Positions 10,352 through 33,834 of a stretch of DNA of 43,005 nucleotides are shown here, piece after piece; the stretch's first letter is position 1, and each line of letters starts with the position of its first letter. A model generated the notes under the pieces. That model searched no databases. It was not told where the DNA came from and saw nothing but the letters and a program-made list of their open reading frames with translations. The position numbers and the translations under genes are program-made. This stretch comes from Acidobacteriota bacterium (GTDB lineage Bacteria; Acidobacteriota; UBA6911; JACQSX01), in assembly GCA_036507075.1 (NCBI GenBank), contig DASXQR010000212.1, positions 1 to 43,005 of the forward strand. Direction: 5' to 3'.

Positions 10352-10559
10352 CCACAAGTATGAGGTGATCATCTATTGGAGCGCTGAAGACGAAGCTTTC
10401 ATCGCGGAGGTGCCTGAATTGGCTGGATGCGCGGCAGATGGAACATCCTACTCTCAAGCTTTGGCAAACGTTCAAGTTGTGATTCAAGAATGGATTGAAA
10501 CGGCCAAGGGAATGGGTCGTCCGATTCCAAAACCAAAGGGTCGCCTGACTTTCGCCTAA
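10341..10559 (+). CDS. hicB: HicB family antitoxin
   Basis: YEVIIYWSAEDEAFIAEVPELAGCAADG..WIETAKGMGRPIPKP. Confidence 0.9.
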   Translation: MKNNHKYEVIIYWSAEDEAFIAEVPELAGCAADGTSYSQALANVQVVIQEWIETAKGMGRPIPKPKGRLTFA

Positions 10560-10586
10560 CCCTTTCAGTCTTCCCGGCAAGTCGCT

Positions 10587-10673
10587 GCTTAACCATCGCT
10601 GCAGTCGACGCGCCACCACCCGGTGCCTTCGGTCAACATGGTGTTCGGGGCGCGGCTTATGCCTGGATCAAGC
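10587..10673 (+). other. Degenerate attC-like site
   Basis: GCTTAAC-N4-GCTGCAGTCGACGCGCC ... GGCGCGGCTTATGC; complementary to GTTAAGC at 10036-10042; terminal GTT missing. Confidence 0.5.
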
Positions 10674-10796
10674 AACCTTTATCCTGCCCCCAGTGCCGGA
10701 GGTGATTCGAAAGTGGGACAACTTCGAAAAAGTTCTTCACGCTCCCGGCGATCTGCCTGTGTTTATCCACTGCAGTTTCGACTAACTATCTTCAAG

Positions 10797-10830
10797 GATT
10801 TCGTGAAATTCGTGTAATTCGTGTTAATTC
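10797..10830 (+). repeat. Nonamer array R6
   Basis: TTTCGTGAAATTCGTGTAATTCGTGTTAATTC. Confidence 0.85.
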
Positions 10831-10908
10831 ATACTCACGCCTTTCGAGTACACCTTTCCGGCACGCAGGTTTTAGAGAATCTCTTCGGCTGCTGGTACTG
10901 GGGTCTGA

Positions 10909-11037
10909 CTACCTATCCACGCTTCCGGCGGCTTCGCGGAAGAGGCAAAAAGTGTTGGCCATGCGCATCTCCTCTGCCGTCCGGCACCGGATTCTGAACA
11001 GGTCTGGGCTGCAAACGAGGATGGCCAGCGCGCGAGC
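10909..11037 (-). pseudogene. Orphan 3' end of a helicase homologous to 11900-13150
   Basis: ARALAILVCSPDLFRIRCRTAEEMRMANTFCLFREAAGSVDR*; aligns to 11951-12055. Confidence 0.85.
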
Positions 11038-11075
11038 CGTTGCACAGGCTTGTGCGCATATGCAATTATATATGC

Positions 11076-11375
11076 GTGTACCAAATCCGCGTCGCCCGGG
11101 ATGTTGAAAAGGATCTTAAGAAATTGAAGGCGCGTGATCGCAAATTAGTAGTGGATGCAATCCAAACTAATTTGAGTTACCAGCCGACAATTGCAACAAG
11201 AAACAGGAAAATCCTGGCGAGCCTGATTCCGCCCTGGAATGCCGAACCGCCGATCTGGGAATTGCGGGTTGGCGATTACCGCGTATTCTACGACGTTTCC
11301 GAAGCAGAGGAGACAGTGTTTGTTCGTGCCATCCGCAGGAAGCCAGGCGGGCAAACAACCGAGGAGATCTTATGA
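11076..11375 (+). CDS. RelE/ParE family toxin
   Basis: GTG start; WELRVGDYRVFYDV..VFVRAIRRK. Confidence 0.88.
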   Translation: MYQIRVARDVEKDLKKLKARDRKLVVDAIQTNLSYQPTIATRNRKILASLIPPWNAEPPIWELRVGDYRVFYDVSEAEETVFVRAIRRKPGGQTTEEIL

Positions 11376-11611
11376 AAACTACTACAATGCGAGACCTCCA
11401 GAAGAACCTGAAGGAGAGCATCGATAATGCCCAGCAGGATCGCGTGGTCATAACCAGGCATGGAAAACCCGCGGCTGTGCTTATTGGAGTAGAAGGCGAG
11501 GATTGGGATTCTGTCGTCCTTGAGACCGACCCCAAATTCTGGAAACTTATCCATGACCGCAGAAAACAACCGACTGTTCCTCTGGGTGAAATCAAAAAGC
11601 GTTTGAAGTGA
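11372..11611 (+). CDS. Phd/YefM family antitoxin
   Basis: RVVITRHGKPAAVLIG; 4-bp overlap with toxin. Confidence 0.9.
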   Translation: MKTTTMRDLQKNLKESIDNAQQDRVVITRHGKPAAVLIGVEGEDWDSVVLETDPKFWKLIHDRRKQPTVPLGEIKKRLK

Positions 11612-11704
11612 GAACAGAACGTGACAAAACGACAACACGATCACCGGCCGCCGGGAAGCACATTGCCACCGAGCGTAACGCTCGAAGGTTTGAAGCGAGA
11701 ATAG

Positions 11705-11740
11705 TTCGTGCAATTCGTGAAATTCGTGTAATTCGTGTTT
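11705..11740 (+). repeat. Nonamer array R7
   Basis: TTCGTGCAATTCGTGAAATTCGTGTAATTCGTGTT. Confidence 0.85.
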
Positions 11741-11899
11741 CAAATTCGACACTTGCGCCAAGCTGACGCCGTTATGGCTCTTACTTTAAAAAATCCGGAA
11801 AATTGAAATAAGCGACCATACGACCATTCCTTATTCCAATGGACTGAAACAAGGAGAATGAGCCGGCCAAAGGTTGCCTCTTTGAGCTCAGTATTGAGG

Positions 11900-13150
11900 T
11901 TATCCGGCCGCAATAGATGAGGCCTTACTCCCGCTCCGCCGCTCGGCCAGTTCGCGGAAAAGGCAAAAGATATTGGCCATCCGCATCTCTTCTGAGGTCC
12001 TGCATCGGATCCTGAACAGGTCTGGACTGCAAATGAGAATCGCCAGCGCGGGCGCGGGAGATGGCGACATTGAGTCGATTGCGGGAGTAGAGAAATTCGA
12101 TGTCGCGCGGAGCGTCGTCGGGCGAAGAGCTGGCAGTCGAATAGAGTACCAGCGCTCCTTCCTGACCTTGGAACTTATCCACCGTCCCGACTCGGCCTCT
12201 CTGACCGAACCGCTGAAGAAGGCGCCTTGAGATCTCGCCAACCTGAAGGTTATAGGGCGCAACAATAAGGATATCGTCGAGAGACAAAGGTCGCTTCTCG
12301 CCTTTCTGGTTGATCCAGTCACGACCGTCCAGTAAGGATATGACCTCCACGACTGCTTTAGCTTCCTCTGTGGAGCGCGATGAATTCTGTTCATGGTTCA
12401 CCAATAATAAATGGATACCCGTTCCGGGGAGACCGCTGCCCGATTCGATCGCTTGCGCGCGCGTAGACTCGTGGGGTTCCAGGCGGCCCTCGTAAAAAGC
12501 CTGGGAGATGTAGTTGCAGACGTCCGGGTGCAACCGCCATGTCTTGTCCAGCAAAAGTCCTCGCTCTGGCGGAATTGTGTCGAATTCGCCGAGGACATGT
12601 TCAAGCGCGGACGCGCCGGCCCCTTCCGGATGTGTGCCCTTTGTGACCTGGGGCAGTTGGTTTGGATCACCCAGGAGCACGATAGACCGTGCCGCACCCC
12701 CCATCGCGATCACGTTCGCGAGGGACATCTGACCGGCCTCGTCGACGAACAGGACGTCTATGAATCCTTCCATGTCGGCGCGTGCAAAGAGCCAGGGGGT
12801 TCCGGCGGCAACGCTGTATGTGCCGTCTCTGAGCGCCTGGATAACATCGCTGTTCTCTTCCGCGACAGTGACTTCTCGCTCCTTTGAACCCTCTTCCTCT
12901 TCGCATCGCTGAATCACACGAACCTTTTGCCCGGCTTCACGGCCCGCCCGGCAAACCTCATCAACCAGGTTTGTGATGGCTTTGTGGGCCGTAGCTGTGA
13001 TCCCAATCTTCTTACCGCTCCGCGCTCGGCAACGAGTATCCCGGTAGCACACATGTCACGCGCGTCGACCTGCGCGGAGCCGCCGAACCCAAGGACAGCC
13101 TGTGCCACGAATTGCCCTGTCGTTGACGGGCTCTCCTCGGCGAGATCACT
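11900..13150 (-). pseudogene. SF1 Upf1/DNA2-like helicase C-terminal half (TM0106-type), truncated and frameshifted
   Basis: VDEAGQ, GDPNQL, APYN, TVDKFQGQE, RLNVAISRAR present; Walker A absent; 2-bp loss near 12048. Confidence 0.85.
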
Positions 13151-13281
13151 GAAGTGACCGAGGCCCTGGCGCCAATTCCGTCACCACGACCTTAAGCTCC
13201 GCAGACCGCCCTGAGGATGTGGGTCTGGAACCGATTCGATTCAACCAACCGCGCCCACGTCGAAAAGAAACCGGCGCAAAT

Positions 13282-13938
13282 CTATTCGACAACGATCCCA
13301 CCGCTTTCAGTCGTCCAAAAGATTTGAAATCCTAGTTTGTGCCGGAAGCTCTCGACTTTCCGCGCGAGGTTTGCGTACGTTGAAAATCCTCGAGGAAGTA
13401 CGAGACCGAGATCGACGTCGGAGTTCGTTTCTCGGTAGAGAATGAGATCAAACAACGCTGCAGCGAACCAGTGACGGGCCTGTGGGTAGCAGCTGCGCTG
13501 CGGGTATCCTTTGACTGTGAGCCACATCTCCCGGCCGTCTGGGGACGTTGCGATTACATCCTTCCCATGTTGCCTCGATTCCGTATCGGCGGAACCGGTC
13601 ACTTGCCATCCGATACTTTGAAGATGCTCGACGAGTCGAGCCTGGACATTGCCCTCCCAGAACCAGGGCTTCTCTCCGTTGGAAGCTGCGACGTTTCGAG
13701 TAGGGGCAGCGTCAACAGAGGCCACTGTGTCCCGAGAATGAGAAACGTTGACGTACTTGTACTCCGAACCGAGCCTGCAAACATCCTTGCGGCGCTCGAT
13801 CTGCTCGCTGGATTTCAATTCACGGCAAGCACTGTTTACCGCTTGGCGACGGCTGACGCGGAGCTCTCGCGCCAGGCAATCGTCGCAGATGGCTTCGCCC
13901 GAACGAAGCCTCTCAAGAATTCTCTCTCTTAGAGTCAT
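13282..13938 (-). CDS. HTH + PD-(D/E)XK-like nuclease hypothetical protein
   Basis: N-terminal ICDDCLARELRV HTH-like segment; WEGNVQ..GKDVIAT..WLTVKGYP; AGGAGG RBS. Confidence 0.6.
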   Translation of the reverse strand: MTLRERILERLRSGEAICDDCLARELRVSRRQAVNSACRELKSSEQIERRKDVCRLGSEYKYVNVSHSRDTVASVDAAPTRNVAASNGEKPWFWEGNVQARLVEHLQSIGWQVTGSADTESRQHGKDVIATSPDGREMWLTVKGYPQRSCYPQARHWFAAALFDLILYRETNSDVDLGLVLPRGFSTYANLARKVESFRHKLGFQIFWTTESGGIVVE

Positions 13939-14006
13939 TCTGCACCTCACCTCCTTATTTGGCTTGATTGACCGCAGCTCGCTGCTGCTGTTCTTCCTTG
14001 CTCGGT

Positions 14007-14372
14007 TTAACCTCGAACGTACTCATTCTCGTACCACCTTAGAAGCTCCAGGTACTGCTCCGGTAGATCCTCAGGCCGTGGGCATGTCTTTCCACCTTCG
14101 CGATAGGAGTGGAACGGGTCGCTGGGACGAAACAGCCGTCTACGGCCGCGGCTGGTTTCAAAGAGCATCCGGTAATTTCCGGGGTTCGGGCGCTTATTTG
14201 CGACGCAGTGAAGTGATATGTGAACCTGAACTCCTGGTCTGAGCCGACCCGTGATGTTCTCCTGCGCCACGCGGTCCACAATCTCCCGAACGTTGAAATC
14301 GGGTTCTGCCGGACGCTCCCGATGCAGCAGCGCGGTAGCAACCCATACCTCATCGGCGACTTTGACATTCAT
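14007..14372 (-). CDS. Hypothetical protein
   Basis: 121-aa ORF co-oriented with the downstream nuclease-like gene; protein-like composition. Confidence 0.7.
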   Translation of the reverse strand: MNVKVADEVWVATALLHRERPAEPDFNVREIVDRVAQENITGRLRPGVQVHISLHCVANKRPNPGNYRMLFETSRGRRRLFRPSDPFHSYREGGKTCPRPEDLPEQYLELLRWYENEYVRG

Positions 14373-14479
14373 ACGTACATACTAACATACATTAAGACCT
14401 CCGCCCGCCGCACAAGGGTGTAGAATAGGTGTAATTTTGAATAGTCTGTGCTGACTTTTTCCACTAAAATTGGAAATAA

Positions 14480-15310
14480 ATGACACAGAATATACCTCAA
14501 GGTAAACAGGGCATCAGCGGCGTCTCCCGGCGTTTATTGAGCCGTCTGCTAAGAGAGCGACCGGAGACTATGACGCCGGCCGACGCCGCTCAAGTGCTCA
14601 ACCTTCCTCAAAACAAGGCGGCGAAGCTGCTTGCCGACTGGGCCAAACGTGGCTGGCTGGCGCGGGTGCGGCAAGGCCTTTATGTCCCGGTTCCTCTTGA
14701 CTCAATTTCACCCCACATAATTCCAGACGATCCCTGGCTGATCGCGGTGCGCGTGTTTGAGCCCTGCTATATAGGCGGGTGGAGTGCTGCGGAACACTGG
14801 GATCTTACAGAGCAGATCTTCCGAACCACGGTCGTCCTCACCACGCGTCGTGTTGGAGATAGAAACCCCGACCTTTTGGGACTGAAGTTTCGAGTGAAAA
14901 CCGTCAGCACCCAGGCATTCTTCGGATTGAAGAATGTGTGGCGAAATTCAGTCCAAGTTCCTGTCTCGGATCCGAGCCGAACAATCGTTGATCTGTTCGA
15001 TGATCCGTCAATGGGAGGAGGCATCCGACCCTCCGCTGACATTCTTCGAAACTATCTGGCGTCTAAAACCAAAGATCTGCCCCTCATCATCGAATATGCC
15101 GATCGTCTTGGAAACCGGGCGGTGTTCAAGCGGCTCGGCTTTTTGATGGAACAAGTTGCACCGACCGAACAGCAATTCATTTCCGAATGCAAAGCACGGC
15201 TGTCCGCCGGCAATGCGAAGCTTGACCCCACTCTACCCGCCGAAAAGTTAATCACACGCTGGAGGCTCTGGGTGCCGCGTACATGGGCACGGAGAATACC
15301 GGGTGATTAG
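14480..15310 (+). CDS. abiEi: Type IV TA antitoxin, AbiEi family
   Basis: wHTH GWLARVRQGLY, YIGGWSAAEHWDLTEQ, SDPSRTIVD, KRLGFL. Confidence 0.88.
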   Translation: MTQNIPQGKQGISGVSRRLLSRLLRERPETMTPADAAQVLNLPQNKAAKLLADWAKRGWLARVRQGLYVPVPLDSISPHIIPDDPWLIAVRVFEPCYIGGWSAAEHWDLTEQIFRTTVVLTTRRVGDRNPDLLGLKFRVKTVSTQAFFGLKNVWRNSVQVPVSDPSRTIVDLFDDPSMGGGIRPSADILRNYLASKTKDLPLIIEYADRLGNRAVFKRLGFLMEQVAPTEQQFISECKARLSAGNAKLDPTLPAEKLITRWRLWVPRTWARRIPGD

Positions 15311-16691
15311 CAGTGCGGAGATTCAGGAGTTCGCAGCCGAGCTGGGTCTTCAGCCGCGCATCATTGAGAAGGACTATGTTCTCGGCTGGCTGCTGGCCGG
15401 CATTTACCAGCATCCTGTCCTGAGCCAGTCCTGGTTATTTAAAGGCGGCACCTGCCTCAAAAAATGTTTTTTTGAAACGTACCGATTTTCAGAGGATCTC
15501 GACTTTACACTCACAGATGCCGCGCATCTGGATGAGGCATTCCTTCATGAGCACTTAGGCCAGGTTTGCGGATGGATTTATGAGACCAGCGGCATCGAGA
15601 TGCCGCTCACCAACCTGCGGTTTGATCGATATCAAAACAGACGCGGTCAATATTGTGTTCAAGGTCGCATTAGCTACCGGGGGCCATTTCGGCCAGGCGG
15701 TGACCTGCCCCGCGTCAAGCTGGATCTCACGGCCGACGAGTTGGTCGTCGGTAGGCCGCAGGTGCGCGACGTTTTTCATCCGTACTCTGATTGCCCGGAA
15801 GGAGGAATACGATCTCTCTGTTACAGCTTCGAAGAGTTGGTCGCGGAGAAAATGAGAGCGCTGGTGCAGCGCTTACGGCCGCGGGACCTTTATGACGTCG
15901 TAAATCTTTATCGACGCAATGACATGCCTGCGGACCGCGACGTTGTCTTCAGCATTCTTTCGGAGAAATGTGACTTCGTCGCAATTCCAATCCCGACGTT
16001 TGCTGTCCTTGACCAGATGTCTGAAAAGGCTGAGCTGGCCCAGGAATGGAGCAATATGCTGGCTCACCAACTTCCGTTTTTGCCGCCCTTTGAACAATTC
16101 TGGGCAGAGCTCCCGAACATTTTTGCGTGGCTGCACGGCGCCATCAGGCCTGCACCTGTATCGATTCCACTGGTTGAAGCGGTGGACACGACGTGGCGAC
16201 CTCCCGCGGCCGCACGTCCCTGGGGCGCGCCTGTTCCGCTCGAGATTATCCGTTTCGCGGCGGCAAACCACCTCTGCGTTGATTTGAAATACCAGGGAAC
16301 ATGGCGACTAATCGAGCCGTATTCGTTGTATCGAAGCAGTGAAGACAACTTGGTCCTCCGTGCTGTCAAACATCAAACCGGCGAACCACGTTCTTACCGC
16401 ATCGACCGAATCGAAGGGGCCCGGGCCACTGAAACATCTTTCAGCCCGCGCTACGCAATCGAGCTGACACCGTCAGGGCCTCTAACAGTCACAGCGAGTA
16501 CTGCCGGATACCACCCGCGCTCACTCCGCCCGCCACCGGGACTCTTCCATGAGCCTCGATACATTATCGAGTGCCCAGTCTGCAGGAAACGGTTTACGCG
16601 GAAGCTGTACGATCTGACATTGAGGGAACACAAAGACCAGAACGGTGTTCCTTGTTGGGAACGCTCTGCAGTTTTCATTGAAAAACGGTAG
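15303..16691 (+). CDS. abiEii: AbiEii nucleotidyltransferase toxin fused to WYL and Zn-finger domains
   Basis: IEKDYVL, FKGGTCLKK, RFSEDLDF, AEKMRAL, RDLYD; WYL-like RLIEPYSL..RSYRIDRI; CPVC..H..C tail. Confidence 0.88.
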   Translation: MISSAEIQEFAAELGLQPRIIEKDYVLGWLLAGIYQHPVLSQSWLFKGGTCLKKCFFETYRFSEDLDFTLTDAAHLDEAFLHEHLGQVCGWIYETSGIEMPLTNLRFDRYQNRRGQYCVQGRISYRGPFRPGGDLPRVKLDLTADELVVGRPQVRDVFHPYSDCPEGGIRSLCYSFEELVAEKMRALVQRLRPRDLYDVVNLYRRNDMPADRDVVFSILSEKCDFVAIPIPTFAVLDQMSEKAELAQEWSNMLAHQLPFLPPFEQFWAELPNIFAWLHGAIRPAPVSIPLVEAVDTTWRPPAAARPWGAPVPLEIIRFAAANHLCVDLKYQGTWRLIEPYSLYRSSEDNLVLRAVKHQTGEPRSYRIDRIEGARATETSFSPRYAIELTPSGPLTVTASTAGYHPRSLRPPPGLFHEPRYIIECPVCRKRFTRKLYDLTLREHKDQNGVPCWERSAVFIEKR

Positions 16692-16801: not shown

Positions 16802-17488
16802 CTATTCGGCGATTGTTTGTTCGATCTCATTAAGGGTCTTAATGTGATCGGCTGTTCGAAGCGGAGCCGTTGAAATGAAAAGATTATCAGCATAGGGTGT
16901 ATTGATGCGTCGCTCGATCAAGAACCTCGCAAGTGAGCTGAACATACCCGGTAATTCCGTCTTGTCAAAATCCAATGTCAGCGAATGAAGCTGTGCACCA
17001 TTAGCTGTTTTTATGCCATATGTGTCTTGGTATACCTTTTCCGCCGCTCTGGAGAGTGCGTCAAATTTAGACACAAAACGGTTAGCGGATGATTTAAACT
17101 GTACCGTAATTTGGCTGAAGAAGAATTTCCGTGGTTCAACAGTGACCTGTCTGAAGTCAAACTCATCCCTTAAAAACTTGAGAAGATCTTCAATAAAAAA
17201 TTCGGAGACTTCCGTATTATCCGCAGTACAGACCATACCATCTTGGAACGCCGTGAAATCCTGAATCGGAAAATCGCGAGCATCTTTTCGTATTTTCCCA
17301 ATCGTGAACTTGAAGCCCTCCTTTTGTGCTTGTTCTTGGCTTGCGGCGACATTCGGTATCGTGCCAAACCGGTATCGTTCCTGAATTGAGCTAAACAGCG
17401 AGGGAAGGTATACCCCACCCAGTGGGGCAATCGCATCAATTGGAACCATTAGAATTGTTCTGCCGATTTGCGTTGCAATTAAGTTCAT
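16802..17488 (-). CDS. Hypothetical protein, third gene of RelE-HTH operon
   Basis: 228-aa ORF with 4-bp overlap to the HTH gene. Confidence 0.75.
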   Translation of the reverse strand: MNLIATQIGRTILMVPIDAIAPLGGVYLPSLFSSIQERYRFGTIPNVAASQEQAQKEGFKFTIGKIRKDARDFPIQDFTAFQDGMVCTADNTEVSEFFIEDLLKFLRDEFDFRQVTVEPRKFFFSQITVQFKSSANRFVSKFDALSRAAEKVYQDTYGIKTANGAQLHSLTLDFDKTELPGMFSSLARFLIERRINTPYADNLFISTAPLRTADHIKTLNEIEQTIAE

Positions 17489-18042
17489 TGGCCACCAGTC
17501 ATTCCGAGTGTCGCTTCAAGTCCAGTCTCCTCACGTCCTAGCAGACTCGGCAAGGACGGCGGCACTGAACCCCTCCTCTCTTGCATGAAATCGCCAATAT
17601 GCACAACTAGGCCACCACTTGCTCGCCGGTCTCTAGCCGTAGCCCAATTCGTCAAACGGCTCTCCTCTTCGTGGATGCTTTGAGCAGACAGCGCGACAGG
17701 TGACACATCTTCGTACTCTCGAAGCAACCGACTAAACGGAACAAATTTGACGAGTAGTGCGACATCAAACGCAGACGCAATTTCAAAGAGAGTTTTCAGC
17801 GTCAGTTTTCCGTAGTTCGGGTCTTCGAGCCGAGTGATTACGTTCCGTGGCTTTTGTGCCTCCTCTCCGAGTTTGCCTTGCGTCCACCGCCTTTCCTCTC
17901 TCAAAGCGCGGATCTGGAAAGGAATGCCATTTCGAATATGCTCGTAGACGTACGAGTCTCGGAACTTTTTGCTATCTAGCAATTTACGAACGAGTGAGAC
18001 GTTAGAAAGTAATTTCACGGGCACGTTCCTTCCGCGCTTCAA
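17485..18042 (-). CDS. XRE-family HTH antitoxin (HigA-like) with long C-terminal extension
   Basis: QIRALREERRWTQGKLG..ITRLEDPNYGKLTLKTLFEIASAFDV. Confidence 0.85.
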   Translation of the reverse strand: MKRGRNVPVKLLSNVSLVRKLLDSKKFRDSYVYEHIRNGIPFQIRALREERRWTQGKLGEEAQKPRNVITRLEDPNYGKLTLKTLFEIASAFDVALLVKFVPFSRLLREYEDVSPVALSAQSIHEEESRLTNWATARDRRASGGLVVHIGDFMQERRGSVPPSLPSLLGREETGLEATLGMTGGQ

Positions 18043-18391
18043 TTAGCGCCTTCCTATTGAAAGCCGTTTCGCAAATGTTCACTGGGTCAAACTTCCTATC
18101 TCGCTCAGTGGCAAACGCCAGAAACGTAAACTCCTCAGCGCCGGAAAAATACCCAATTGGCCTGTACTGAACTTTGTTCACCTTCAATCTGATCTCGAAT
18201 AGTCCTTTGCAATTCCTCGTCAACTGACCGACATACGGCCTATCCCAAGCACTCGGGGGGAGAGTTAACAAGAATTTCATGCGCATGAGAAATGCGTTCT
18301 GCACGTCTTCGTCTTGAGCTTCAAACCAGTCTAGGACGATCGTCCGATTGCTTGTTTCGGAGAGCGTAACGCTCTTTATTTTCCACGCCAT
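18002..18391 (-). CDS. RelE/HigB (Gp49-like) toxin
   Basis: VLDWFEAQ..GLFEIRLKVNKVQYRPIGYF; toxin-first order; start at ATG 18391. Confidence 0.82.
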   Translation of the reverse strand: MAWKIKSVTLSETSNRTIVLDWFEAQDEDVQNAFLMRMKFLLTLPPSAWDRPYVGQLTRNCKGLFEIRLKVNKVQYRPIGYFSGAEEFTFLAFATERDRKFDPVNICETAFNRKALIEARKERAREITF

Positions 18392-18401
18392 TGAGTCTAC
18401 A

Positions 18402-18541: not shown

Positions 18542-18613
18542 GGGCCTGTACCTCAAGGGATAGAGGGAGTCGGTTGCTAACCGACGTGTCGTGGGTTTGA
18601 GTCCCCAGGGTTT
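18542..18613 (+). pseudogene. Degenerate tRNA (loop centre GCT, short variable arm)
   Basis: GGGCCTG-TA-CCTC..GAGG D stem; GTCGG-TTGCTAA-CCGAC anticodon arm; GGG-TTTGAGT-CCC T arm; acceptor stem damaged, no CCA. Confidence 0.6.
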
Positions 18614-18619: not shown

Positions 18620-19135
18620 CTACTTTATCTTAAGAAAATCTTGGAGGTCTTCGTAGGCGGACTTACCCCAGAGATATCGGTCCTTGTCCCGGAGAGTTTG
18701 CGCGTGGATTATGGCGGCGACTTTTGGTAGGAACTCGGTGAACTAGAGCTCGACCTCGTTTTTCCTCCCTGCAAAGTCTTTAATCCCAAGTTGCTGACGA
18801 GCACGAACGTCGTAGACCGTGAAGCGGTTCGGATAGAGGACGGTCAAGATGGCGGTGGCCATGGGGAGCGCTAGACGCCATTTTTCAAGAAGCAGCGTGA
18901 GGCGTTCTCGATCGTTCGCCGCATCGTTGATTTCCTGGGTCAGGTTCTTTATGACGGTCGAAACGTCTTTGCCGTGCGCGAGCAGCTTTCGCTTGATGCG
19001 GGACTTGGCGCGGTTTGCCTTCCAGATCACGATGCTGAAAAATTCCTCCGCCGTGAGGTACCCGCGCTCCTGAAACGCAGTTGTCACGTCCGAGAATAAG
19101 TAGTTTTCGAGGGAGTAGTATTTGATGTAGTCCAT
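18620..19135 (-). pseudogene. Hypothetical helical protein (HhH/glycosylase-like?) with in-frame TAG
   Basis: IVIWKANR..LPMATAILTVLYPNRFTVYDVR; frame continues past TAG (18743-18745) as FTEFLPKV..LRDKDRYLWGKS. Confidence 0.65.
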
Positions 19136-19210
19136 GGGAGATTTTGATATCAAGTGATGTCTTATTAGTTGGTACGGCAGGAGGAGCCGTATTGGAAGAT
19201 GAGGGGCATG

Positions 19211-20017
19211 TCAGACCACATAGATACCACGGTGAAGCTTTCGGCTCTCCTCGGGCCTCGCGGCAAAGACGTTCGTTCCTTTTCGTATCAGCACACGATC
19301 TTCAAAATGATATACGTCTTTCCGATTCCAGGGTGGTACGGCGATAGCGATAACTTCGTGCCCTAGAACCGTCACGGTGTGCAGCTTGACAACGGCGGCG
19401 GGGAAAATATTGCTCTTAACTGAATTCTGTACCGCTTGGTCGAGCTTTTGGCGGCTTATATCCGAGCCCTGTATTGTGCCGCTGTCGTCCACGCCATAAA
19501 GAACTCTTCCACCCTGCCGCGTGTTCAACATCGCAGCGATCTCACGTGCAATCTTGTTTGCCGCCGTACCCTGTCCCTTAAATTCACAAATCTGATCTTC
19601 TCCACGCCGGCATATGTCGAGCATCTCGTTTTCAGTTGGGACCGGTAGAGACGGCGGCCGTCTTGCCTTGCTAGATTTTGAGTTGGATTGGAATGGAGAA
19701 CGCCGGGAGGAGTGGGTCAGCATTTTGGACGGACCCTGAAAATACGTTGTTGGGATCGTTCGGGCCAGCGGCACCTTTTCATATACGGGAAATCCGTCAA
19801 CTCTAAGAGAGTTCCCATCTTTGGTGCCTCTGGGCTGAATAAGGCCGCCGTCCGCCAAGAGCCTCAAATCCCTTGACACATTGTTGATGTGCCTTCGCGT
19901 GGTTTTTGCAATCTCGACCGTGTTGCGACGACCATTGACAAGCTCGAAGATTCGAAGCCGCCCTTGCGCCTGGGAAAAAAGAAAGCGCCCGCGAGTTATC
20001 AGTTCTTGGAGATCCAT
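19211..20017 (-). CDS. wHTH + Schlafen/AlbA_2 domain protein
   Basis: N-terminal wHTH (NNVSRDLRLLADGGLI); GEDQICEFK, IAAMLNTRQGGRVLYGVDDSG. Confidence 0.85.
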   Translation of the reverse strand: MDLQELITRGRFLFSQAQGRLRIFELVNGRRNTVEIAKTTRRHINNVSRDLRLLADGGLIQPRGTKDGNSLRVDGFPVYEKVPLARTIPTTYFQGPSKMLTHSSRRSPFQSNSKSSKARRPPSLPVPTENEMLDICRRGEDQICEFKGQGTAANKIAREIAAMLNTRQGGRVLYGVDDSGTIQGSDISRQKLDQAVQNSVKSNIFPAAVVKLHTVTVLGHEVIAIAVPPWNRKDVYHFEDRVLIRKGTNVFAARPEESRKLHRGIYVV

Positions 20018-20028
20018 TCGAAGAGGCC

Positions 20029-20316
20029 TTACAAGACTCGGCGATATTGCTTGCCATCTTTCACCAGCAGCCCTATTTGCTCCCACTTCTGCCAGAGCCG
20101 AGATATCGTCCCAGTGGAAAGGCCAGTTTTCTTGGCAAGTTGTGAAACAGGTAGTTTCCCAGTTTCTTCCAACAACAACCGGTGATTCCTGTCGCTAAGT
20201 ATTTCATCAAGGCGATCGGAAAGGACCGTCCTAGCAATAAGCGCAAGTAACTCTTCGATCCGCCTTAACGCCTGGACCTCCAGGGGAATCTCTGCTTTCT
20301 TTCTTGGGGATGTCAT
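20029..20316 (-). CDS. Small winged-HTH protein
   Basis: VSQLAKKTGLSTGTISRLWQKWEQIGLLVKDGKQY. Confidence 0.78.
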   Translation of the reverse strand: MTSPRKKAEIPLEVQALRRIEELLALIARTVLSDRLDEILSDRNHRLLLEETGKLPVSQLAKKTGLSTGTISRLWQKWEQIGLLVKDGKQYRRVL

Positions 20317-20341
20317 AGGAAAAAGTGTCTCCATTACGCGG

Positions 20342-21043
20342 CTAGACGCGATCAAGGTATATGGTTCCGTGGTCAATGACTCCCAGGATCGTGTCGATGA
20401 AGCTGCAGAACTTTAGCGCATCTTCGCGGGTGAATTTGTCACTTAGATGATGGTGGGTCTTGTTCCGAAATACAAGCATGACGCCTTTGCAAATACTGTG
20501 AAATCCCTCCTGTTCGTCCTTATCCGCACTCACGCTAATGACTGCCTTTTGAGGGTCAGGGTTTAGAACTTTACCCACGAGATTCACAGGATTCATGTTA
20601 GTAATTCCCGACTTCGTTTTGAGACGATCGTCTAGAACTGTCGACGCCTCGCGGATCACTCGGTCGAAGTGCTTCTTCGCCTGGAGTAGGTCCTTACACC
20701 GCGCGCGTAGCTGTTCATCCCCCAGCAGAGTACGGATTGTGGCGGCCGTGATCGGTTCCGCTTTTCGCGGCGCCGACACTTTGGCATTGCTGATGCGAGG
20801 GCTTGCGGCAGTAGATCCTGGCCCTAAGCTCCGAACCTCCTGGCGCACTTCAGCCGGTACTTTGTTGAGTGCATTGGCAATTCCAATTCCGAACTCCTTT
20901 GCCCAAATTAGTTGTGCCGCAGCAGATGAGATGCCTTGCTTGCTTGCTCTCCTACTAATTCGTTCACGCAGGTATTGCTCGGGCTTACCCGACTTCCTGG
21001 CCATTTTCGCGAGCAAGTCTGCATTTAGGCGTTTCTGCGGCAT
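20342..21043 (-). CDS. TIGR02391/Ymh family (HEPN-like) protein
   Basis: VIREASTVLDDRLK..NLVGKVL..EQEGFHSICKGVMLVFRNKTHH (RxxxxH). Confidence 0.8.
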   Translation of the reverse strand: MPQKRLNADLLAKMARKSGKPEQYLRERISRRASKQGISSAAAQLIWAKEFGIGIANALNKVPAEVRQEVRSLGPGSTAASPRISNAKVSAPRKAEPITAATIRTLLGDEQLRARCKDLLQAKKHFDRVIREASTVLDDRLKTKSGITNMNPVNLVGKVLNPDPQKAVISVSADKDEQEGFHSICKGVMLVFRNKTHHHLSDKFTREDALKFCSFIDTILGVIDHGTIYLDRV

Positions 21044-21053
21044 AACTCAAAAC

Positions 21054-21245
21054 CTACTCCACTGCTTCACGCTTTGCCTTCTTTAAATGCCTCGCGATCC
21101 GGCTGACACGGTGCATATTGCAGCCCGCGATCTTACGGATTTCGGACTGCGAAACGCCTGCCTTTGCCAACTCCACAATCAAGAGGTTACGAAGCAGCTC
21201 GGCGGTTGGATCGTCTAGTTGCGGTTTTCGCTTCTTTGGAGACAT
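21054..21245 (-). CDS. Small HTH protein
   Basis: AGVSQSEIRKIAGCNMHRVSRI; tight spacing in operon. Confidence 0.72.
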   Translation of the reverse strand: MSPKKRKPQLDDPTAELLRNLLIVELAKAGVSQSEIRKIAGCNMHRVSRIARHLKKAKREAVE

Positions 21246-21253
21246 ACTGTTTG

Positions 21254-21502
21254 TCACATCTTCTTCTTGGCGGGTGTTGATTTCCCCTTCTTCTGCTTTG
21301 CTTTGCGCAGGTTGGTTAGTGCTACGCTTACTGTATTCGAGGTGGTACCAAGTAAATCGGCAATCTCCTTTGGCTGAAAGCCTACACGATCCAGAAGTGC
21401 GATTTGCTCGTTCTGCCTCATCCCCTTAGTGACGCTGACAGTAAGGACGCGAAGTAGCTGGTCCAATTTAGCTAACACCAAATGTTCAAAAGTTTTGGGC
21501 AT
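21254..21502 (-). CDS. Small HTH protein, paralog of 21516-21758
   Basis: KLDQLLRVL..GFQPKEIADLLGTTSNTVSVAL..Lys-rich tail. Confidence 0.8.
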   Translation of the reverse strand: MPKTFEHLVLAKLDQLLRVLTVSVTKGMRQNEQIALLDRVGFQPKEIADLLGTTSNTVSVALTNLRKAKQKKGKSTPAKKKM

Positions 21503-21515
21503 AAGGAAAAGTCTC

Positions 21516-21758
21516 CTAAACGGACGCCGCTTTCCGGCCTTTACCGGCTCGCTTGGCCTTCCGCAAGGCAACAAGTTCGACCCTAACGGTGTTGCTGGTT
21601 GTGCCCAAAAGCTCCGCTATTGCCTTCGGTGAAAAACCGGCTCCGTCGAGCAGTTCGATTCGTTCTCGCTGTTTGACTCCGCGAGTCGCGGTCACGACCA
21701 AAATTCGAAGAATTTGATCCAGCTTTTCGAGTGTTTGTTCCTCAATCGTTTCTGCCAT
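21516..21758 (-). CDS. Small HTH protein
   Basis: KLDQILRIL..GFSPKAIAELLGTTSNTVRVEL..basic tail. Confidence 0.8.
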   Translation of the reverse strand: MAETIEEQTLEKLDQILRILVVTATRGVKQRERIELLDGAGFSPKAIAELLGTTSNTVRVELVALRKAKRAGKGRKAASV

Positions 21759-21965
21759 ACTTTCTAATAACAAACCCTCCATTTTAAATGTTAATGCCAG
21801 TATAAATGCATTAGGTGGAATAGGTCAACAACTCACTGATACAATGTGACATGAGTAGGATGACCTAATGAAGAAGTCCGCTAGTTTTCGAGGGCAGTAT
21901 TGGGGTCGCTTAGTTCTTACAGATCCCCAGAGGAAGGAGCGGGAGAAGATGGAGGGCGTGAGGGC

Positions 21966-23501: not shown

Positions 23502-24991
23502 AGTTTCTTTGCTGACTTTGTTGTAGCCAGCGCAGCGTTATCGTTGCCGTTTTCGAGAAGTGCAATCACGGCATTTAACTCATCGACGGCGTTTTCGAGT
23601 TCGGCGATGGCGTCGGTGGCAAGCTCCTCCGGTTCGGGAAGTTCATCACTGTCGTCGAGCGATTCGTCCTTCAACCACTTGAGCGAGTCAACCTTGTAGT
23701 CCCGCTTTTTGATCTCATCAATCGTGAATGAGCGCCATCGGTCTTCCTTGGAGTCGGATACTTTCCGCTTTGCACGGCCGTTCGAGTCCGAACCGTAACA
23801 CTTTTCAAATTCCGCGAAGTGCTCGGGTGTGAGCGGCCGGTCCTTTTTGGTGATGCGCGGAACGTTTGTCCTCGCGTCGTAGACCCAGAGGGTCTCGGTC
23901 GAGTATCCCTTGGTGAAGAAGGCCACGTTGGTCTTGGTACCGGGACTGTACGGCGAGAAGGTGCCATTGGGAAGGCGCAGCACGGTGTGGACATTGCAGT
24001 CCTGCATGAGGATTTCAAAAACGTCGCCTGCCTGATCTGCAAACAGGCAGTTATCGGGGAGCACAATGGCCGCCCGGCCGCCCTTTTTGAGAATCGTAAG
24101 CACGTGCTGCAGGAAGTTCAACTGCTTGTTGGTCGTCTCTATGGTGAAGTCCTCGCGGTTGGGGACGTCGTTTGCCCCTTTGGTGCCGAAGGGTGGATTC
24201 GTGAGGACGACGTCAAAATGCCTCCCGTCGGCGGACTCGTAGATTGAATCCCCGCCTTTGATCTGCGGCTCCAGGCCGTGGAGGTAGAGATTCATAAGCG
24301 CCAGGCGCTTCGGTCGGTCCACAAGCTCCTGGCCGAAGTAGGTTGCGCTTCTTACACGCTTTGCAAGCGCCTTATCCATGGCGCCGCCTTTTGTCGCGTC
24401 GATCAGCCACTCATAGGCGGCAACGAGGAATCCTCCGGTACCGCAGGCCGGGTCGCAGATCGTAAACTCTGCGTGGGCGCGCGGGTCCGGTTTAACACAA
24501 CGGACGATGGATTTGATTAGAATGCGCGGCGTGAAGTACTGGCCGGCGCCTTTCTTCCCCTCGCTTGCCGCCTTTTCCAACAATCCTTCGAAAGCCGCGG
24601 CTTTGATGTCGATGTCAAGCGACGTCCACTCAACCTCGTCAATCACGCCGGTGAGCTTTTTTAAGTTCACGGGATTGTTAAAGCGAGAAACGGCCTTCGC
24701 GAATATGGCCCCCAGCAGGCCCTTCTGTCGTCCCAAGGCCTGAAGCACGTGGATGTAGTGTTCATTTAACGCGAGGCCCGACTTTGCTTCGAGCGCGGGC
24801 CAGGAACAATCTACCTCCACTTCCTTTCCCTTCTCGTCGGTGTACACGGTACGGCTCAAATCAATCCCGCGCTCGTCCGCCATTTTCAAAAAGAGCAGGT
24901 AGGTCAACTGCTCGATGTAGTCCCCGTAGTCAATGCCGTCGTGGCGCAGGGTGTGGCAGAAGCCCCACAGTTTTTGTACGACGTCGCTCAT
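23498..24991 (-). CDS. hsdM: Type I R-M N6-adenine methyltransferase
   Basis: GQYFTPR, DPACGTGGFL, NPPF. Confidence 0.95.
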   Translation of the reverse strand: MSDVVQKLWGFCHTLRHDGIDYGDYIEQLTYLLFLKMADERGIDLSRTVYTDEKGKEVEVDCSWPALEAKSGLALNEHYIHVLQALGRQKGLLGAIFAKAVSRFNNPVNLKKLTGVIDEVEWTSLDIDIKAAAFEGLLEKAASEGKKGAGQYFTPRILIKSIVRCVKPDPRAHAEFTICDPACGTGGFLVAAYEWLIDATKGGAMDKALAKRVRSATYFGQELVDRPKRLALMNLYLHGLEPQIKGGDSIYESADGRHFDVVLTNPPFGTKGANDVPNREDFTIETTNKQLNFLQHVLTILKKGGRAAIVLPDNCLFADQAGDVFEILMQDCNVHTVLRLPNGTFSPYSPGTKTNVAFFTKGYSTETLWVYDARTNVPRITKKDRPLTPEHFAEFEKCYGSDSNGRAKRKVSDSKEDRWRSFTIDEIKKRDYKVDSLKWLKDESLDDSDELPEPEELATDAIAELENAVDELNAVIALLENGNDNAALATTKSAKKL

Positions 24992-27695
24992 GCTGCGATT
25001 GCCTCGTTAAATTGCCGGATAAGCTGCGGGAGGGAACCCGCGAAGATTTTATTTGCGCGACCCCAGCCCCCCGCGCGCTCGAAGATAGGAAAGGTATTGA
25101 AGTCGTCTTCCTCGATCGAGAGGTTCTCCACCAGGTGCGCGCGGATGCGGTCAAGCCAGTGCCGCTGCGCATCGGTGAAGGCCTTGCCGTCCGTCACCTG
25201 CTCGAAAGCGAGGTTTACGCGCTCTTCGGCGTTCAGGAGCGGTGAGGCATCGTCGGCCGCGTGCTTGACCATGGAAATAATGTCGGCAAGGGCCTTATCG
25301 TAGCGAAGCTTGTGGGCGACCTGGAGGTTTTTAACCGTGAAGTGCTGCGGGGCGGCGGCAAGCTTCTCGCGGAGTTCCAATAACGCGTTCGTGTTCCAGT
25401 CCCGCGGCCGGTTCAGGAGAATGCCGATGGCCTTGATGTGGGACGGGTTATTTCGCACAAAGTTTGCAAAGGCCGTCAGGTAATCCTCGGGCTTGTATCC
25501 TTTCCCATCCGTCTCTCGAACCCGCCATTCTGAACTTACCGTGTCCTGCGTCTCGTGGGCGATAAGGAAGGTGCGTTTCTTGCGGATGTAGTTGATGAGG
25601 AGGTCCTGGAAATTCTGGTCGCGGAGGATTTGCATTGTTGCCGTGAAGTTTTCTTTGAGCCGCCGCAAGAGTTCTCCAGCGAAACGGCCGATGTCTCCGT
25701 CCGGGATAAAGGCGGCGAAATCCTCCCGTGCCTCGCCGGCCATTTCCTTCTCAATCCGGCGGAGGCGCTTCACCAGGCAGCGGATGTTGTACTCCCGGTC
25801 GCGGTTCTCCCAAATCGCCTGGATAATCTCGGCGATGGTCCGCGCTTCCTTTTGCGGCGGCTCGGCGGTGATCGCCGTTACACTCTTGAAATACTCAAGC
25901 AGCGTCCCATCGAAGCAGTCAAAAACCACGAAATGAGATTTATTCGGATACTGCTCACCCTTGCGCGTGCCGCGACCGAGCATCTGCTCAAAAAGGATGC
26001 GGGATTTTACGGGCCGAAGGAAGACGATGTATTCAAGATCGGGTATGTCGACGCCGGTGGAAAGCATATCCACCGTGACGACGGTCCCCGGCTCGGGACG
26101 GTTCCGGAATTCCCGAATACGCTGGAGAGGACGGTCCACGGTGGGACTTCCGGTGATCTTTCGCACGAACGCATCGCCCCGCCCGAAGACGTCGCGGGCC
26201 AGATCAACCAACTGGTCGCTGTGTGAAGTGTGGGCGATGTCGTTTGCGGCGAAAATGAGTGTTTTGGGAAAGCGGGCGTAAAGAGCCTCATGTTCGAGCG
26301 CATACTTTTTGACTTCTTCGAGAATTTTGCGGTTGGAGTCTGGCGATGTTACCTTCTCTTCGACCTCTGTGGTGTCGAATTGGCGCTCATCCTCCATTTC
26401 GTCCAGTTGCTTGCTTCCCGTTTCCGGATCGACGAAGCTCACCTGCTCGCCTTCTTTGAGAAACACCCCCTGCATGCGGACGTTGGATTTGATCGAGACG
26501 ACGTCGTAATCGACCAGAAACCCTTCGCGGACTGCGCGCTCGTACTCGTAGCGGTATACGACATCCTTGAAATAGGAGGTCGTGTGGACGGCGGGAGTGG
26601 CCGTGAGCCCGATCTTAATCGCGTCAAAATGGTCGAGAGCCTGTCGCCAGATCGCGGTTTCCTTTGCGGTGTAGCCGCGGTGGCACTCGTCGGCGATGAT
26701 GAGGTCGAAAGCGTGAATGGGGATCGGTTCTGGTTCGACGTCTTCTTCAACCTCTTCGGCCCCGAGCTCCGGGATGACATCGCGGCCGAAGAGGTTGATC
26801 GTCATGCGCTGGATGGTGGAGATGTAGACAAATGGATGGTTCGGCTTGGGTTTTTCAAGTAGCCCTTGGGCAGCTCTTTCGGGTCGAACTTTTCGTCCTC
26901 GCCGAAATCTTCCTTGTGAAAGCGCTGATGGTAGACCTCGTAGACCTGATTGAACTTGTAGCCGGGCTCGGCTTCAAAGGAGGCAAAGGCCTTTACAGCC
27001 TGTGCGGCAAGCGCTCGACGGTCCACAAGGAAGAGAACTCTTTGCGCCACACCCGACTTCATCAGGCGGTAAGCCTCGTTTACCAGCGTGAAAGTCTTGC
27101 CGGTACCGGTCGCCATTGCAACCAGCATCCAGCGCTTGCGGTTTGCGATCGCTTTCTCGATTGCTGCGTTCGCTTCCTTTTGGTAGGGGCGGATGAGCGT
27201 GTGGTCGTTTGGGGTCTCGGATAATTTGTCGCACGCCGTTTCAATATCCCGTCCCAGGGATTCGACCAGAGCGTCGGGTGTATGGAACCGGGCGATTTGT
27301 CTCGACCGGTTGAGTTCGTGGCGGATGTCGTGGTGCCAGATCACTTCGCCATTTGTCGAATAAAGGAATGGCACTCCGTAGCCGCGGAAGTTGAAGGGTT
27401 TGCCCGCCAGTCCCTTCGCGTAGCGTTCGGCTTGGGAGAGAACGTTCTGCGGGCCGAGGGTGAGTTTCTTGGCTTCGACGACACCGAGAATCTTGCCGTC
27501 AACGCAGAGAGCATAGTCGGACGGCCCGTTTTCCGTCGGGTACTCTTCGATCGCGCAGCGGTCGTAAGCGCGGAGGGGTTTCGAGGAATCGAACGTGTTT
27601 TCGGGAACGATGCGCCAACCGGCATCGGTAAGCCGTTTATCGATGAGCTGTTTTCGGGTGAGTTTCTCCGAGTTTTTAGGTGAAGCCTTCAGCAT
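24988..27695 (-). pseudogene. hsdR: Type I restriction subunit split by a frameshift near 26850
   Basis: 5' ORF 26802-27695 (VEAK, MATGTGKT) joins in the -1 frame via KPNHPFVYISTIQRM to 24988-26805 (DECHR, TATP, QMLGRGTR, EcoEI-type C-terminus). Confidence 0.9.
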
Positions 27696-28592: not shown

Positions 28593-28829
28593 ATGAGATT
28601 TAAGATTCTCGACACGGTTGTGCTTGAGAAAGACCTGCCCGATTATGGTCTACGGAAGGGCGATCTGGGTGCTGTCGTTCACGTCTACGAGCCGGATGGC
28701 TTAGAGGTCGAATTCGTTACAGCTTCTGGACGAACAGAGGCGCTCGTGACGCTGAACGTCGGTGATGTGCGGAGCGTTGCGGATACTGACCTTATCTCTG
28801 TTCGTTCATTCAATCGTCGTTCCGCCTGA
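28593..28829 (+). CDS. DUF4926 domain protein
   Basis: LDTVVLEKDLPDYGLRKGDLGAVVHVY..EVEFVTASGRT; preceded by a short DUF6883-like tail EDFPRFVTAYPG. Confidence 0.85.
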   Translation: MRFKILDTVVLEKDLPDYGLRKGDLGAVVHVYEPDGLEVEFVTASGRTEALVTLNVGDVRSVADTDLISVRSFNRRSA

Positions 28830-28870
28830 CAGGGTTGCGTTCGCAGATGATGATCACCTGACGATCCGGC

Positions 28871-28905
28871 AACACGAATTTCACGAATTTCACGAATTGC
28901 ACGAA
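28871..28905 (-). repeat. Nonamer array R8
   Basis: AACACGAATTTCACGAATTTCACGAATTGCACGAA. Confidence 0.85.
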
Positions 28906-28919
28906 ACGGATGGGGGCAA

Positions 28920-29119
28920 TTTCTGTCGCCGTGAAACCGAATCTGGACGTCATCAACGTCGACCGCCTCAAAACGGTACGGAGATCTGATGAGCGCAATC
29001 GTCTGACGCTTATTTTCAAGCTCTCCGTTGGGCGCTGTTCCCACGTAATCTTCCGCCAGAACCCGCTCAAACAAGGAGTCATCGTGCCTGATGTTGGCGT
29101 CCACCACCTCCTTCAGCAA
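28920..29119 (-). pseudogene. NTF2-like (DUF4440) fragment
   Basis: FERVLAEDYVGTAPNG..VDDVQIRFHGD, cut off near R8. Confidence 0.6.
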
Positions 29120-29220
29120 ACGCCGGAGTCTTGTTCATCGGCTGCCGGGTCTGACGAGTTGCGCGAATTGACGGCAACGAGTAAGGGCCGGGGCCCGTCG
29201 AACCTTGGCTGATGGCTTGA

Positions 29221-29243
29221 AATATTACAAGTTTTGTAATATT
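29221..29243. promoter_or_regulatory. Palindromic operator
   Basis: AATATTACAA-GTT-TTGTAATATT upstream of XRE gene. Confidence 0.7.
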
Positions 29244-29266
29244 ATTAGTGGGTGAGAGATGGATTT

Positions 29267-29959
29267 ATGACTGCCACGAATCTGAGAGTAGGGAGAGAAA
29301 ACAAGGGATGGACCCAGCAGCAGGCTGCTGAAAGACTGGGAGTGTCTCAGGCCTATCTGTCACTCTTGGAGAATGGGACGCGCAGGTTGACGGAACGGTT
29401 GGCTCGGCGGGCACGGGCGCTGTATGACATGTCTCCCACGGTTCTCCCTGTGCAATCTTCTGGAGATGACGTTTACGCCGCAGAGGAGAACAGGGCCGCC
29501 GGCGACCTTGCGGCTCTGGGTTATTCGGCTTTTTCCTACCTGACAGGAGGAAAAAAGAAGAAGAATCCCGCTGAGGTCGTAGCTTCGCTGCTTAAAGCTC
29601 GAGATCTCGACGCAAGGCTCACAGAAGCGCTTCCCTGGCTCCTTCTTGAATACCCGGATCTGGATTGGAACTGGTTGGCCAGGGTTTCCAAGGTTCACGA
29701 TCTGCAAAATCGTCTCGGCTTTGTCACCACGTTGGCACTGCGCCTTGCTGAGACGAAAGGAAACAGGCACGCAAGGGAGGTGTTGGCTCAACAGAGATCA
29801 AACCTGGAGCGATCACGTCTTGCCCGCGAAGACACCTTGTGCCACGAGTCATTGTCGGAGGCAGAAAAAAACTGGCTCCGCGAAAATCGTCCTCCGGCGG
29901 CCAGGCATTGGAATCTCCTGACAGATCTTTCGGTTGAACATTTGAACTATGGGGCCTGA
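29267..29959 (+). CDS. XRE-family HTH protein (putative antitoxin)
   Basis: GWTQQQAAERLGVSQAYLSLLENG; overlaps downstream nucleotidyltransferase. Confidence 0.85.
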   Translation: MTATNLRVGRENKGWTQQQAAERLGVSQAYLSLLENGTRRLTERLARRARALYDMSPTVLPVQSSGDDVYAAEENRAAGDLAALGYSAFSYLTGGKKKKNPAEVVASLLKARDLDARLTEALPWLLLEYPDLDWNWLARVSKVHDLQNRLGFVTTLALRLAETKGNRHAREVLAQQRSNLERSRLAREDTLCHESLSEAEKNWLRENRPPAARHWNLLTDLSVEHLNYGA

Positions 29960-33833: not shown

Positions 33834-33834
33834 C

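Follow-up and report, generated by a model that had tools for sequence, protein, structure and literature searches.

An array of small helix-turn-helix proteins with exchangeable nuclease effectors and a putative self-operator in an Acidobacteriota genome

Poly-wHTH (PRA-wHTH) systems, a computational prediction set out in one paragraph by Li, Burroughs and Aravind in October 2026 (bioRxiv 10.64898/2026.10.19.760177), consist of several winged helix-turn-helix (wHTH) genes in a row, whose products differ in their N-terminal extensions, together with alternative effectors of which HEPN is the commonest; the wHTH proteins are proposed to coat invader nucleic acid. The class is further described by a fast-diversifying DNA-binding domain, tandem copies inside single polypeptides and a PRA-wHTH that also stands upstream of ParA/Tox-RelA. 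The cargo listed there comprises HEPN, cyclic nucleotide monophosphate (cNMP) cyclase, HKD, TIR and ParA/Tox-RelA. Ymh (PF09509/TIGR02391) is a HEPN family whose described fusions, with paraMORC, AbiJ-NTD1/2 and AbiTii, occur in restriction-modification (R-M) operons (PMC3710099). Bacterial Schlafens are tRNases switched on by phage; prokaryotic Schlafens carry the catalytic motif Ex4(E/D)xK, and fusions with a helix-turn-helix (HTH) domain make up 8.8% of one prokaryotic set (PMC13056530). In the literature covered on Ymh, HEPN or Schlafen together with small or multiple HTH proteins, PMC3710099 and the poly-wHTH preprint were the only relevant sources. Here we describe an operon that encodes four small HTH proteins, a Ymh protein and a Schlafen protein, in a stretch of 43,005 nucleotides (contig DASXQR010000212.1, referred to as the window) from an Acidobacteriota bacterium.

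The operon consists of six co-oriented genes on the minus strand. It begins with H1 (21516-21758; 80 aa), a subtype A protein with an N-terminal amphipathic helix and a predicted wingless sigma4/LuxR-like HTH, followed by its subtype A paralogue H2 (21254-21502; 82 aa, 54% identical to H1) and by H3 (21054-21245; 63 aa), a helix plus HTH protein of subtype B. Effector 1 (20342-21043; 233 aa) comprises a helical, putative adaptor N-terminal domain (NTD, aa 1-74), a linker and a Ymh HEPN domain. It is followed by H4 (20029-20316; 95 aa, or 101 aa from the ATG at 20334), of subtype E, with an N-terminal helix and an apparently winged HTH, and by effector 2 (19211-20017), in which a wHTH, a basic linker and a Schlafen/AlbA_2 domain are joined. 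The intergenic gaps are, in gene order, 13, 8, 10, 25 and 11 bp, and 75 bp then separate effector 2 from a seventh gene; the gap between effector 1 and H4 shrinks from 25 to 7 bp if H4 starts at 20334. The gene coordinates, with gaps of 8-25 bp, thus bear out the tightly packed run in the order read by the first-pass annotation, and the identity between H1 and H2 bears out its view of the first two genes as paralogues. That annotation had the architecture right; it missed both the conserved, boxed promoter and the swapping of effectors described below. The six-gene operon is real and conserved, and the locus is likely to be a conserved defence-type module.

The locus shares with the poly-wHTH description several linked HTH genes (four in the window), alternative downstream effectors with HEPN the commonest (here Ymh, at 26 of 68 loci) and variable N-terminal extensions (here six subtypes of small protein whose N-terminal helices differ in length). 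Winged domains are what the text on poly-wHTH describes; here H1 is predicted to be wingless, and the sequences of subtypes A-D and F likewise appear to lack a wing. The cargo also differs from the published list, comprising here HEPN, Schlafen, a restriction endonuclease (REase)-like domain and a PD-(D/E)XK-like gene. No ParA/Tox-RelA, TIR, HKD or cNMP cyclase was recognised among the neighbours viewed or the 29 proteins scanned with Pfam, a result limited by partly scanned open reading frames and short contigs. The passages on poly-wHTH mention no operator, HEPN adaptor, wingless subtypes, or Schlafen or REase cargo; the preprint's figure or supplements may already contain such loci. The module probably belongs to the poly-wHTH class, on an architecture matched by description. 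None of the six module proteins matched a PADLOC system model convincingly. The earlier statement that this is not a named system has to be amended in view of the similar class predicted in the preprint.

The main new feature of the locus is a set of boxes around the promoter, which form a putative self-operator. The sigma70-type promoter (21799-21828, minus strand) has a -35 element TTGACC (21823-21828) and a -10 element TATACT (21799-21804) with an 18-nt spacer, and matches the sigma70 consensus at 10 of 12 positions. Three boxes lie around it on the same strand: a spacer box CTAATG (21809-21814) between -35 and -10, an upstream box CATTAG (21865-21870) 56 nt before the spacer box, and an imperfect downstream box CATTAA (21791-21796) which, together with the spacer box, makes up an inverted repeat enclosing the -10 element. 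CATTAG/CTAATG was the top hexamer in 74 dereplicated 150-nt regions upstream of the first HTH gene, and was present in 54 of them, compared with 6.9 +/- 2.5 (maximum 12) in 30 dinucleotide shuffles. TTGAC is kept at the equivalent position in homologous loci, and CTAAYG begins 13-14 nt past TTGAC in 27 of 32 such pairs. Three further spacings recur among the 74 loci: CRTTAG lies 16-19 nt after the spacer CTAAYG, across the -10 element (20 box pairs), another box lies 54-56 nt before the spacer box (27 box pairs), and a further, distal CTAAYG precedes that box by 23-25 nt (16 pairs). Because the conserved promoter carries boxes at fixed spacing around -35 and -10, these data point to self-repression by the array.

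The nine loci found through Ymh, which are free of the bias of the HTH search pattern, have at least one box in six cases and at least two in five. Ten regions upstream of Ymh genes without the NTD contained no box, a weak control in which some gene starts are approximate. In the 6.1 Mb genome the only copy of the proximal inverted repeat is the one at this locus. This speaks against a host regulon and makes a host global regulator an unlikely binder of the boxes; two looser matches with long spacing (C57 and C101) have no array. Covariation between the boxes and the recognition helix of subtype A was considered and was not clean, as the NTVRV protein is the second one in L071, L076 and L079, which have no box.

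Conservation of the module was followed in two sets of loci. A scan of GTDB contigs with a Ymh alignment gave 22 loci, nine with the NTD and 13 without. All nine NTD+Ymh loci have adjoining small HTH genes in a search with the window proteins alone, and three to five per locus with broader profiles seeded from the same nine loci, whereas none of the 13 NTD-less loci, some of them on short contigs, has a small HTH neighbour; in this set the NTD occurred solely beside arrays. A metagenome scan with an H1/H2 alignment, in which the best 80 of 174 matches were kept and dereplicated, gave 68 loci, with at least two small HTH genes in 65 and at least three in 50. An effector gene is present in 57 of the 68, and at least two effector types in 14. 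The cargo was Ymh at 26 loci, wHTH-REase-like at 17, wHTH-Schlafen at 11 and Swt1-HEPN at nine, the Swt1 count being based on a custom hidden Markov model, with four proteins confirmed by Pfam. Ymh and Schlafen occur together, as in the window, at six of the 68 loci, and L055 has the window's gene order, so the association of multiple HTH genes with Ymh and AlbA_2, proposed from the one locus, recurs elsewhere. Of the 11 effector-less loci, eight come to within 100 nt of a contig end and L036 stops 164 nt short of one; in L095 a Schlafen gene is truncated, and L085 appears solitary. All profile-labelled cargo nucleases bear an N-terminal NTD or wHTH, except two standalone Swt1 genes (L007 and L097). 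In related arrays, the Swt1-HEPN cargo gave a match to PDC-M34B of the PADLOC candidate PDC-M34 (E 7.9e-43), confined to the Swt1-HEPN domain.

The second commonest cargo of the arrays is a 300-aa wHTH + REase-like family (L003:8020-8925, L048:5969-6871 and related loci). The REase-like label rests on a conserved D...D...AFALKG...Q pattern, with no Pfam match; the family pattern is DWGGE-x-ND...AFALKGP...MGKNGDQIQRLF, and PADLOC likewise gave no match. At L121:7563-8824 and L090:6768-7990 lies an array variant with two separate genes, a coiled-coil wHTH gene and, after it, a PD-(D/E)XK-like nuclease gene that was recognised by eye and has no Pfam match.

The distribution of the NTD and the arrays is patchy. 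The NTD was found in none of 40 relatives, and true arrays were found in four of 301 genomes of its own phylum, this genome included. Arrays were also found in one of 301 genomes around G319 (G319 itself), one of 251 around G320, one of 251 around G323 and none of 251 around G322; four of eight own-phylum matches and one match from the G320/G323 sampling were extracytoplasmic function (ECF) sigma factors and were dropped from these counts. Neither H2 nor H4 had a match among 72,556 plasmid records and 50,697 records of phages; in IMG/VR there was no Ymh match and a single weak HTH match, and Foldseek gave no match at E <=0.001. The cassette was found mainly in uncultured lineages (Acidobacteriota, Gemmatimonadota and others) and, among 301 genomes sampled from the Sulfuricaulis phylum, in one only, which may account for its absence from current defence catalogues. 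Two Gemmatimonadota arrays (L009:5621-5773 and L014:1120-3475) lie just downstream of tRNA-His/tRNA-Trp genes, one of them with an integrase-like fragment, which suggests insertion at a tRNA site.

Effector 1 matches Pfam Hypoth_Ymh (E 6.5e-18) and TIGR02391 (E 4.2e-11), passing both family cut-offs. R193, H197 and H198 of its RNKTHH motif, already read as intact in the first-pass annotation, are invariant in 38 of 38 aligned Ymh homologues taken from the best 120 of 249 matches. The AlphaFold2 (AF2) model (predicted local distance difference test score, pLDDT, 82.4) shows a five-helix NTD, a disordered linker and a HEPN fold whose best VIA match is sacsin HEPN (Z 8.2), and the C-terminal domain is predicted to be a HEPN RNase. 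The protein thus shares the HEPN fold and the invariant R-x3-HH motif with the Ymh family; unlike the described Ymh fusions, it bears a 74-aa NTD that matches no Pfam family and is tied to HTH arrays. The best structural neighbour of the NTD is AROD of archaeal Rpa1 (VIA Z 7.4, rmsd 2.9 over 56 residues), a score that common arrangements of small helical bundles also reach. OB folds are the binding partners of AROD, which is acidic (PMC10122647); the two are alike as three-helix domains and differ in charge, the NTD being basic. ANTAR domains gave VIA Z 4.8-5.7, NCBIfam gave a weak replication factor A match on NTD aa 10-58 (E 0.028), and no ESM Atlas lead for the NTD reached 0.9; the modelled likeness to AROD and ANTAR is treated as a lead only. 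The possibility that the NTD is a permuted member of the small HTH family was not supported (hhalign <=21%).

All fusion partners of the NTD were HEPN-type among 70 newly listed proteins from a word-based search of 8000 candidates: 47 DUF4145-like, 13 Ymh, two Swt1 and eight divergent Ymh-like. The library profile search used subtype E, not the NTD, as query, and distant NTD fusions could escape it. The 47 NTD + DUF4145-like proteins form a HEPN family of about 231 aa, mostly without a Pfam match, in which NDKVH replaces R-x4-H (L094:1975-2670, L119:4560-5264; P0363-P0431).

Effector 2 passes the Pfam cut-off for SLFN_AlbA_2 (E 6.6e-19). All 13 full-length homologues keep the motif E140-x4-E145-x-K147 unchanged. 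The motif agrees with Ex4(E/D)xK of prokaryotic Schlafens, some of which are likewise HTH fusions (PMC13056530); effector 2 is predicted to be a Schlafen tRNase-type enzyme. In L056:7493-8236 and L061:5828-6319 a common uncharacterised gene (MKLRAGVLILGSLLWD...), without a Pfam match, lies after wHTH-Schlafen.

The small HTH proteins fall into six subtypes, wingless A, B, C, D and F and winged E, the wing being judged by sequence. Sequence identity between subtypes is 14-35%; profile homology among the wingless subtypes is 90-99% for most pairs and 69% for A-B and A-D, H3 (subtype B) standing at 90-99% to C, D and F and at 69% to A. Subtype E, including H4, shows homology to the effector wHTH domains, both those of Schlafen and those of REase-like proteins (profile probability 87-92%). 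The AF2 model of H1 (pLDDT 86.9) is all-helical, with a long N-terminal helix and a three-helix HTH; it has no strand, hence the prediction that H1 is wingless, and in VIA-align both sigma region 4 and LuxR-type HTHs score Z 7-8 against H1. Pfam Sigma70_r4_2 matches H1 under the family cut-off (E 1.4e-5). Pfam HTH matches on the small proteins are weak, the sole one past the curated cut-off being that of H4 (HTH_IclR, E 1.6e-5); only H4 and the Schlafen N-terminus look winged by both sequence and Pfam. The ESM Atlas gave only clusters without names for H1. Recognition helices are conserved within each subtype, the subtype A set being biased by the search pattern; GT[ST][SP]NTVRV is common to seven of the nine loci found through Ymh. 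The commonest gene directly before NTD-Ymh is subtype B (20 of 27 cases), and subtype E directly precedes wHTH-Schlafen in eight of 13 cases, with no strict one-to-one pairing of HTH subtype and effector type. In a check for tandem copies in a single polypeptide, the multi-stretch matches among the best 150 representatives resembled unrelated HTH-repeat proteins. Like the NTD, every one of the small proteins is basic.

Direct observation covers the order of the genes, the conserved array with its swapped effectors, the intact catalytic motifs and the conserved boxes that overlap a sigma70-type promoter, and on this basis we tentatively favour, at a probability of roughly 0.47, a self-repressing multi-subunit antitoxin or scaffold that would restrain plug-in nucleases until infection disturbs the complex. 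The array proteins would bind the CATTAG boxes and repress their own promoter. They would hetero-oligomerise through the common N-terminal Leu-rich helix, which could explain several half-sites at three fixed spacings. The effectors would dock on the complex through their N-terminal domains, the AROD-like NTD for the HEPNs and the wHTH for the Schlafen and REase-like proteins, and the docked nucleases, here the HEPN RNase and the Schlafen tRNase-type enzyme, would be held inactive before infection. Loss or titration of the complex in phage infection would be the trigger, and the released effectors would cleave RNA, leading to abortive infection or dormancy. Several observations weigh against this proposal. 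At least two boxes are present in 43 of 59 arrays that begin with subtype A versus two of 15 that begin with subtype F; because the boxes are largely confined to the A-first arrays, self-repression through the CATTAG box may be limited to one clade. The loci with boxes are related to each other, and their counts are not independent trials. L085 has four boxes, a lone HTH gene and no effector seen. The conservation of the subtype A recognition helix in the metagenome set is a product of the search pattern. The basic charge of the small proteins and the NTD fits nucleic-acid binding better than mutual binding, and the NTD, in its predicted model, resembles RNA-binding ANTAR domains.

A basic, ANTAR-like NTD also fits an array that is purely a transcriptional switch, that is, a multi-subunit repressor or sensor without docking, in which the N-termini of the effectors would target RNA or DNA after derepression. 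The conserved boxes over the promoter and the lack of strict pairing between HTH subtypes and effectors fit this model too. It leaves up to six paralogues superfluous for a simple repressor; the restriction of the NTD to arrays would be needless for a free-standing RNA-binding domain, and the homology of the effector wHTHs to array subtype E also speaks against it, so that we regard it as unlikely while giving it real weight. The model proposed for poly-wHTH, in which the HTH proteins would coat invader DNA so that it is not expressed or replicated, and the nucleases would be a backup that perhaps co-assembles on this DNA through HTH-like domains and is activated by dimerisation, draws on the architecture of the preprint as well as on the basic tails, the divergent subtypes and the wHTH domains of the effectors. 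Recognition helices conserved within subtypes are at odds with it (partly ascertainment in subtype A, yet seven of the nine Ymh-found loci share GT[ST][SP]NTVRV), the conserved DNA motif sits in the cassette's own promoter, and effector-less arrays are nearly all truncated by contig ends. A fixed, putative self-operator fits poorly with such coating, and we consider this account doubtful for the present locus. Autorepression and tight coupling are traits of type II toxin-antitoxin (TA) modules, with which the locus would share an operator overlapping the operon's own promoter (boxes at -35/-10), and several ordinary TA-like pairs lie in the window. A complex addiction module of this kind, stabilising the island or giving stress dormancy without a specific anti-phage role, would be expected in the plasmid and phage records from which the cassette is absent; stacked RNases, DNase-like cargo and defence neighbours favour immunity, and addiction alone seems improbable. 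A more speculative reading, which we hold to be rather unlikely, is a new class of immune platform distinct from winged PRA-wHTH, in which as many as six divergent, sigma-region-4-like mini-proteins would form a hetero-oligomer serving at once as the repressor of the operon, as universal HEPN/Schlafen/REase antitoxin through two adaptor domains, and as decoy for phage proteins aimed at DNA-binding regulators of the host or at sigma70 region 4. Its subtypes would act as alternative baits and the effectors as alternative warheads.

In the PrrC/EcoprrI system a HEPN RNase gene lies beside hsd genes, and the first-pass annotation suggested that the module backs up a type I R-M system, monitoring its complex in the same way. 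A HEPN gene near hsd genes is indeed shared with PrrC/EcoprrI, hsdM/S adjoining the module here and at six of the 30 metagenome loci that have over 1 kb of upstream sequence, and in L078 the array, which has no box, directly follows hsdS. However, hsdM/S adjoin none of the nine GTDB loci and are absent from 24 of the 30 metagenome loci; at the six they occur in both orientations, three being divergent, and the module has its own promoter. Unlike PrrC, the 233-aa effector 1 has a helical NTD and no ABC-ATPase, and the module is not embedded among hsd genes, most loci having no R-M link. The type I R-M genes reported upstream are intact for hsdM and hsdS; hsdR falls into two reading frames (26802-27695 and 24988-26805, minus strand), with a break near 26800-26860, which may be a real pseudogene or an assembly error. 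A guard of R-M was rejected as a general feature, hsdM/S being beside only six of 39 loci overall, and we find such a backup highly improbable. Neighbours of the arrays and modules include R-M, AbiE, AbiJ and GmrSD genes, and the hsd proximity reads as shared residence in defence islands, not PrrC-like dependence.

The seventh gene (18620-19135, minus strand), taken by the first-pass annotation to follow on from the operon, is interrupted by an in-frame TAG at 18743-18745 and was rejected as a module member; none of the retrieved array loci has a homologue, and no solved structure matches. Its one plasmid homologue, from Deinococcus (45% identity over 93%), is annotated as hypothetical; we presumed the gene to be helix-hairpin-helix glycosylase-like, and Pfam and structure searches gave no confirmation. 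Six nt beyond its stop lies a degenerate tRNA-like element (18542-18613, plus strand; anticodon GCT), called tRNA-Ser by ARAGORN and scored at 24 bits by Rfam against a cut-off of 29, with no CCA and no long variable arm. No similar copy turned up at other array loci or elsewhere in the genome, whose normal tRNA-Ser(GCT) is 92 nt long; the element is possibly an old attachment-site remnant. Elsewhere in the window, an AbiEi + AbiEii pair (14480-16691, plus strand) includes an AbiEii with a C-terminal WYL domain and a Cys-containing tail, and an overlapping row (16802-18400, minus strand) comprises a Gp49-like (RelE-type) gene, an XRE HTH gene and a 228-aa gene without a family match. Dense small TA-like pairs and nuclease-like genes, several of which look broken, occupy 9000-14400 and 28600-34600; these runs hold genes that by eye are HicAB-like, RelE/Phd-like and PIN-like, a superfamily 1 (SF1) helicase fragment (Pfam) and two orphans at 13282-14372.

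Schlafen and REase-like cargo, predicted wingless subtypes, a candidate HEPN adaptor and a putative operator are, as far as the passages on poly-wHTH show, additions to the published description of these systems. The locus offers a compact 3 kb test case for poly-HTH conflict systems, with two predicted RNases whose motifs are intact, and the putative self-operator allows a direct test between proteins that coat the invader and a self-repressing multi-subunit antitoxin. If it is true that one scaffold governs unrelated nucleases through two small adaptor domains, this would represent a new, mix-and-match mode of immunity.

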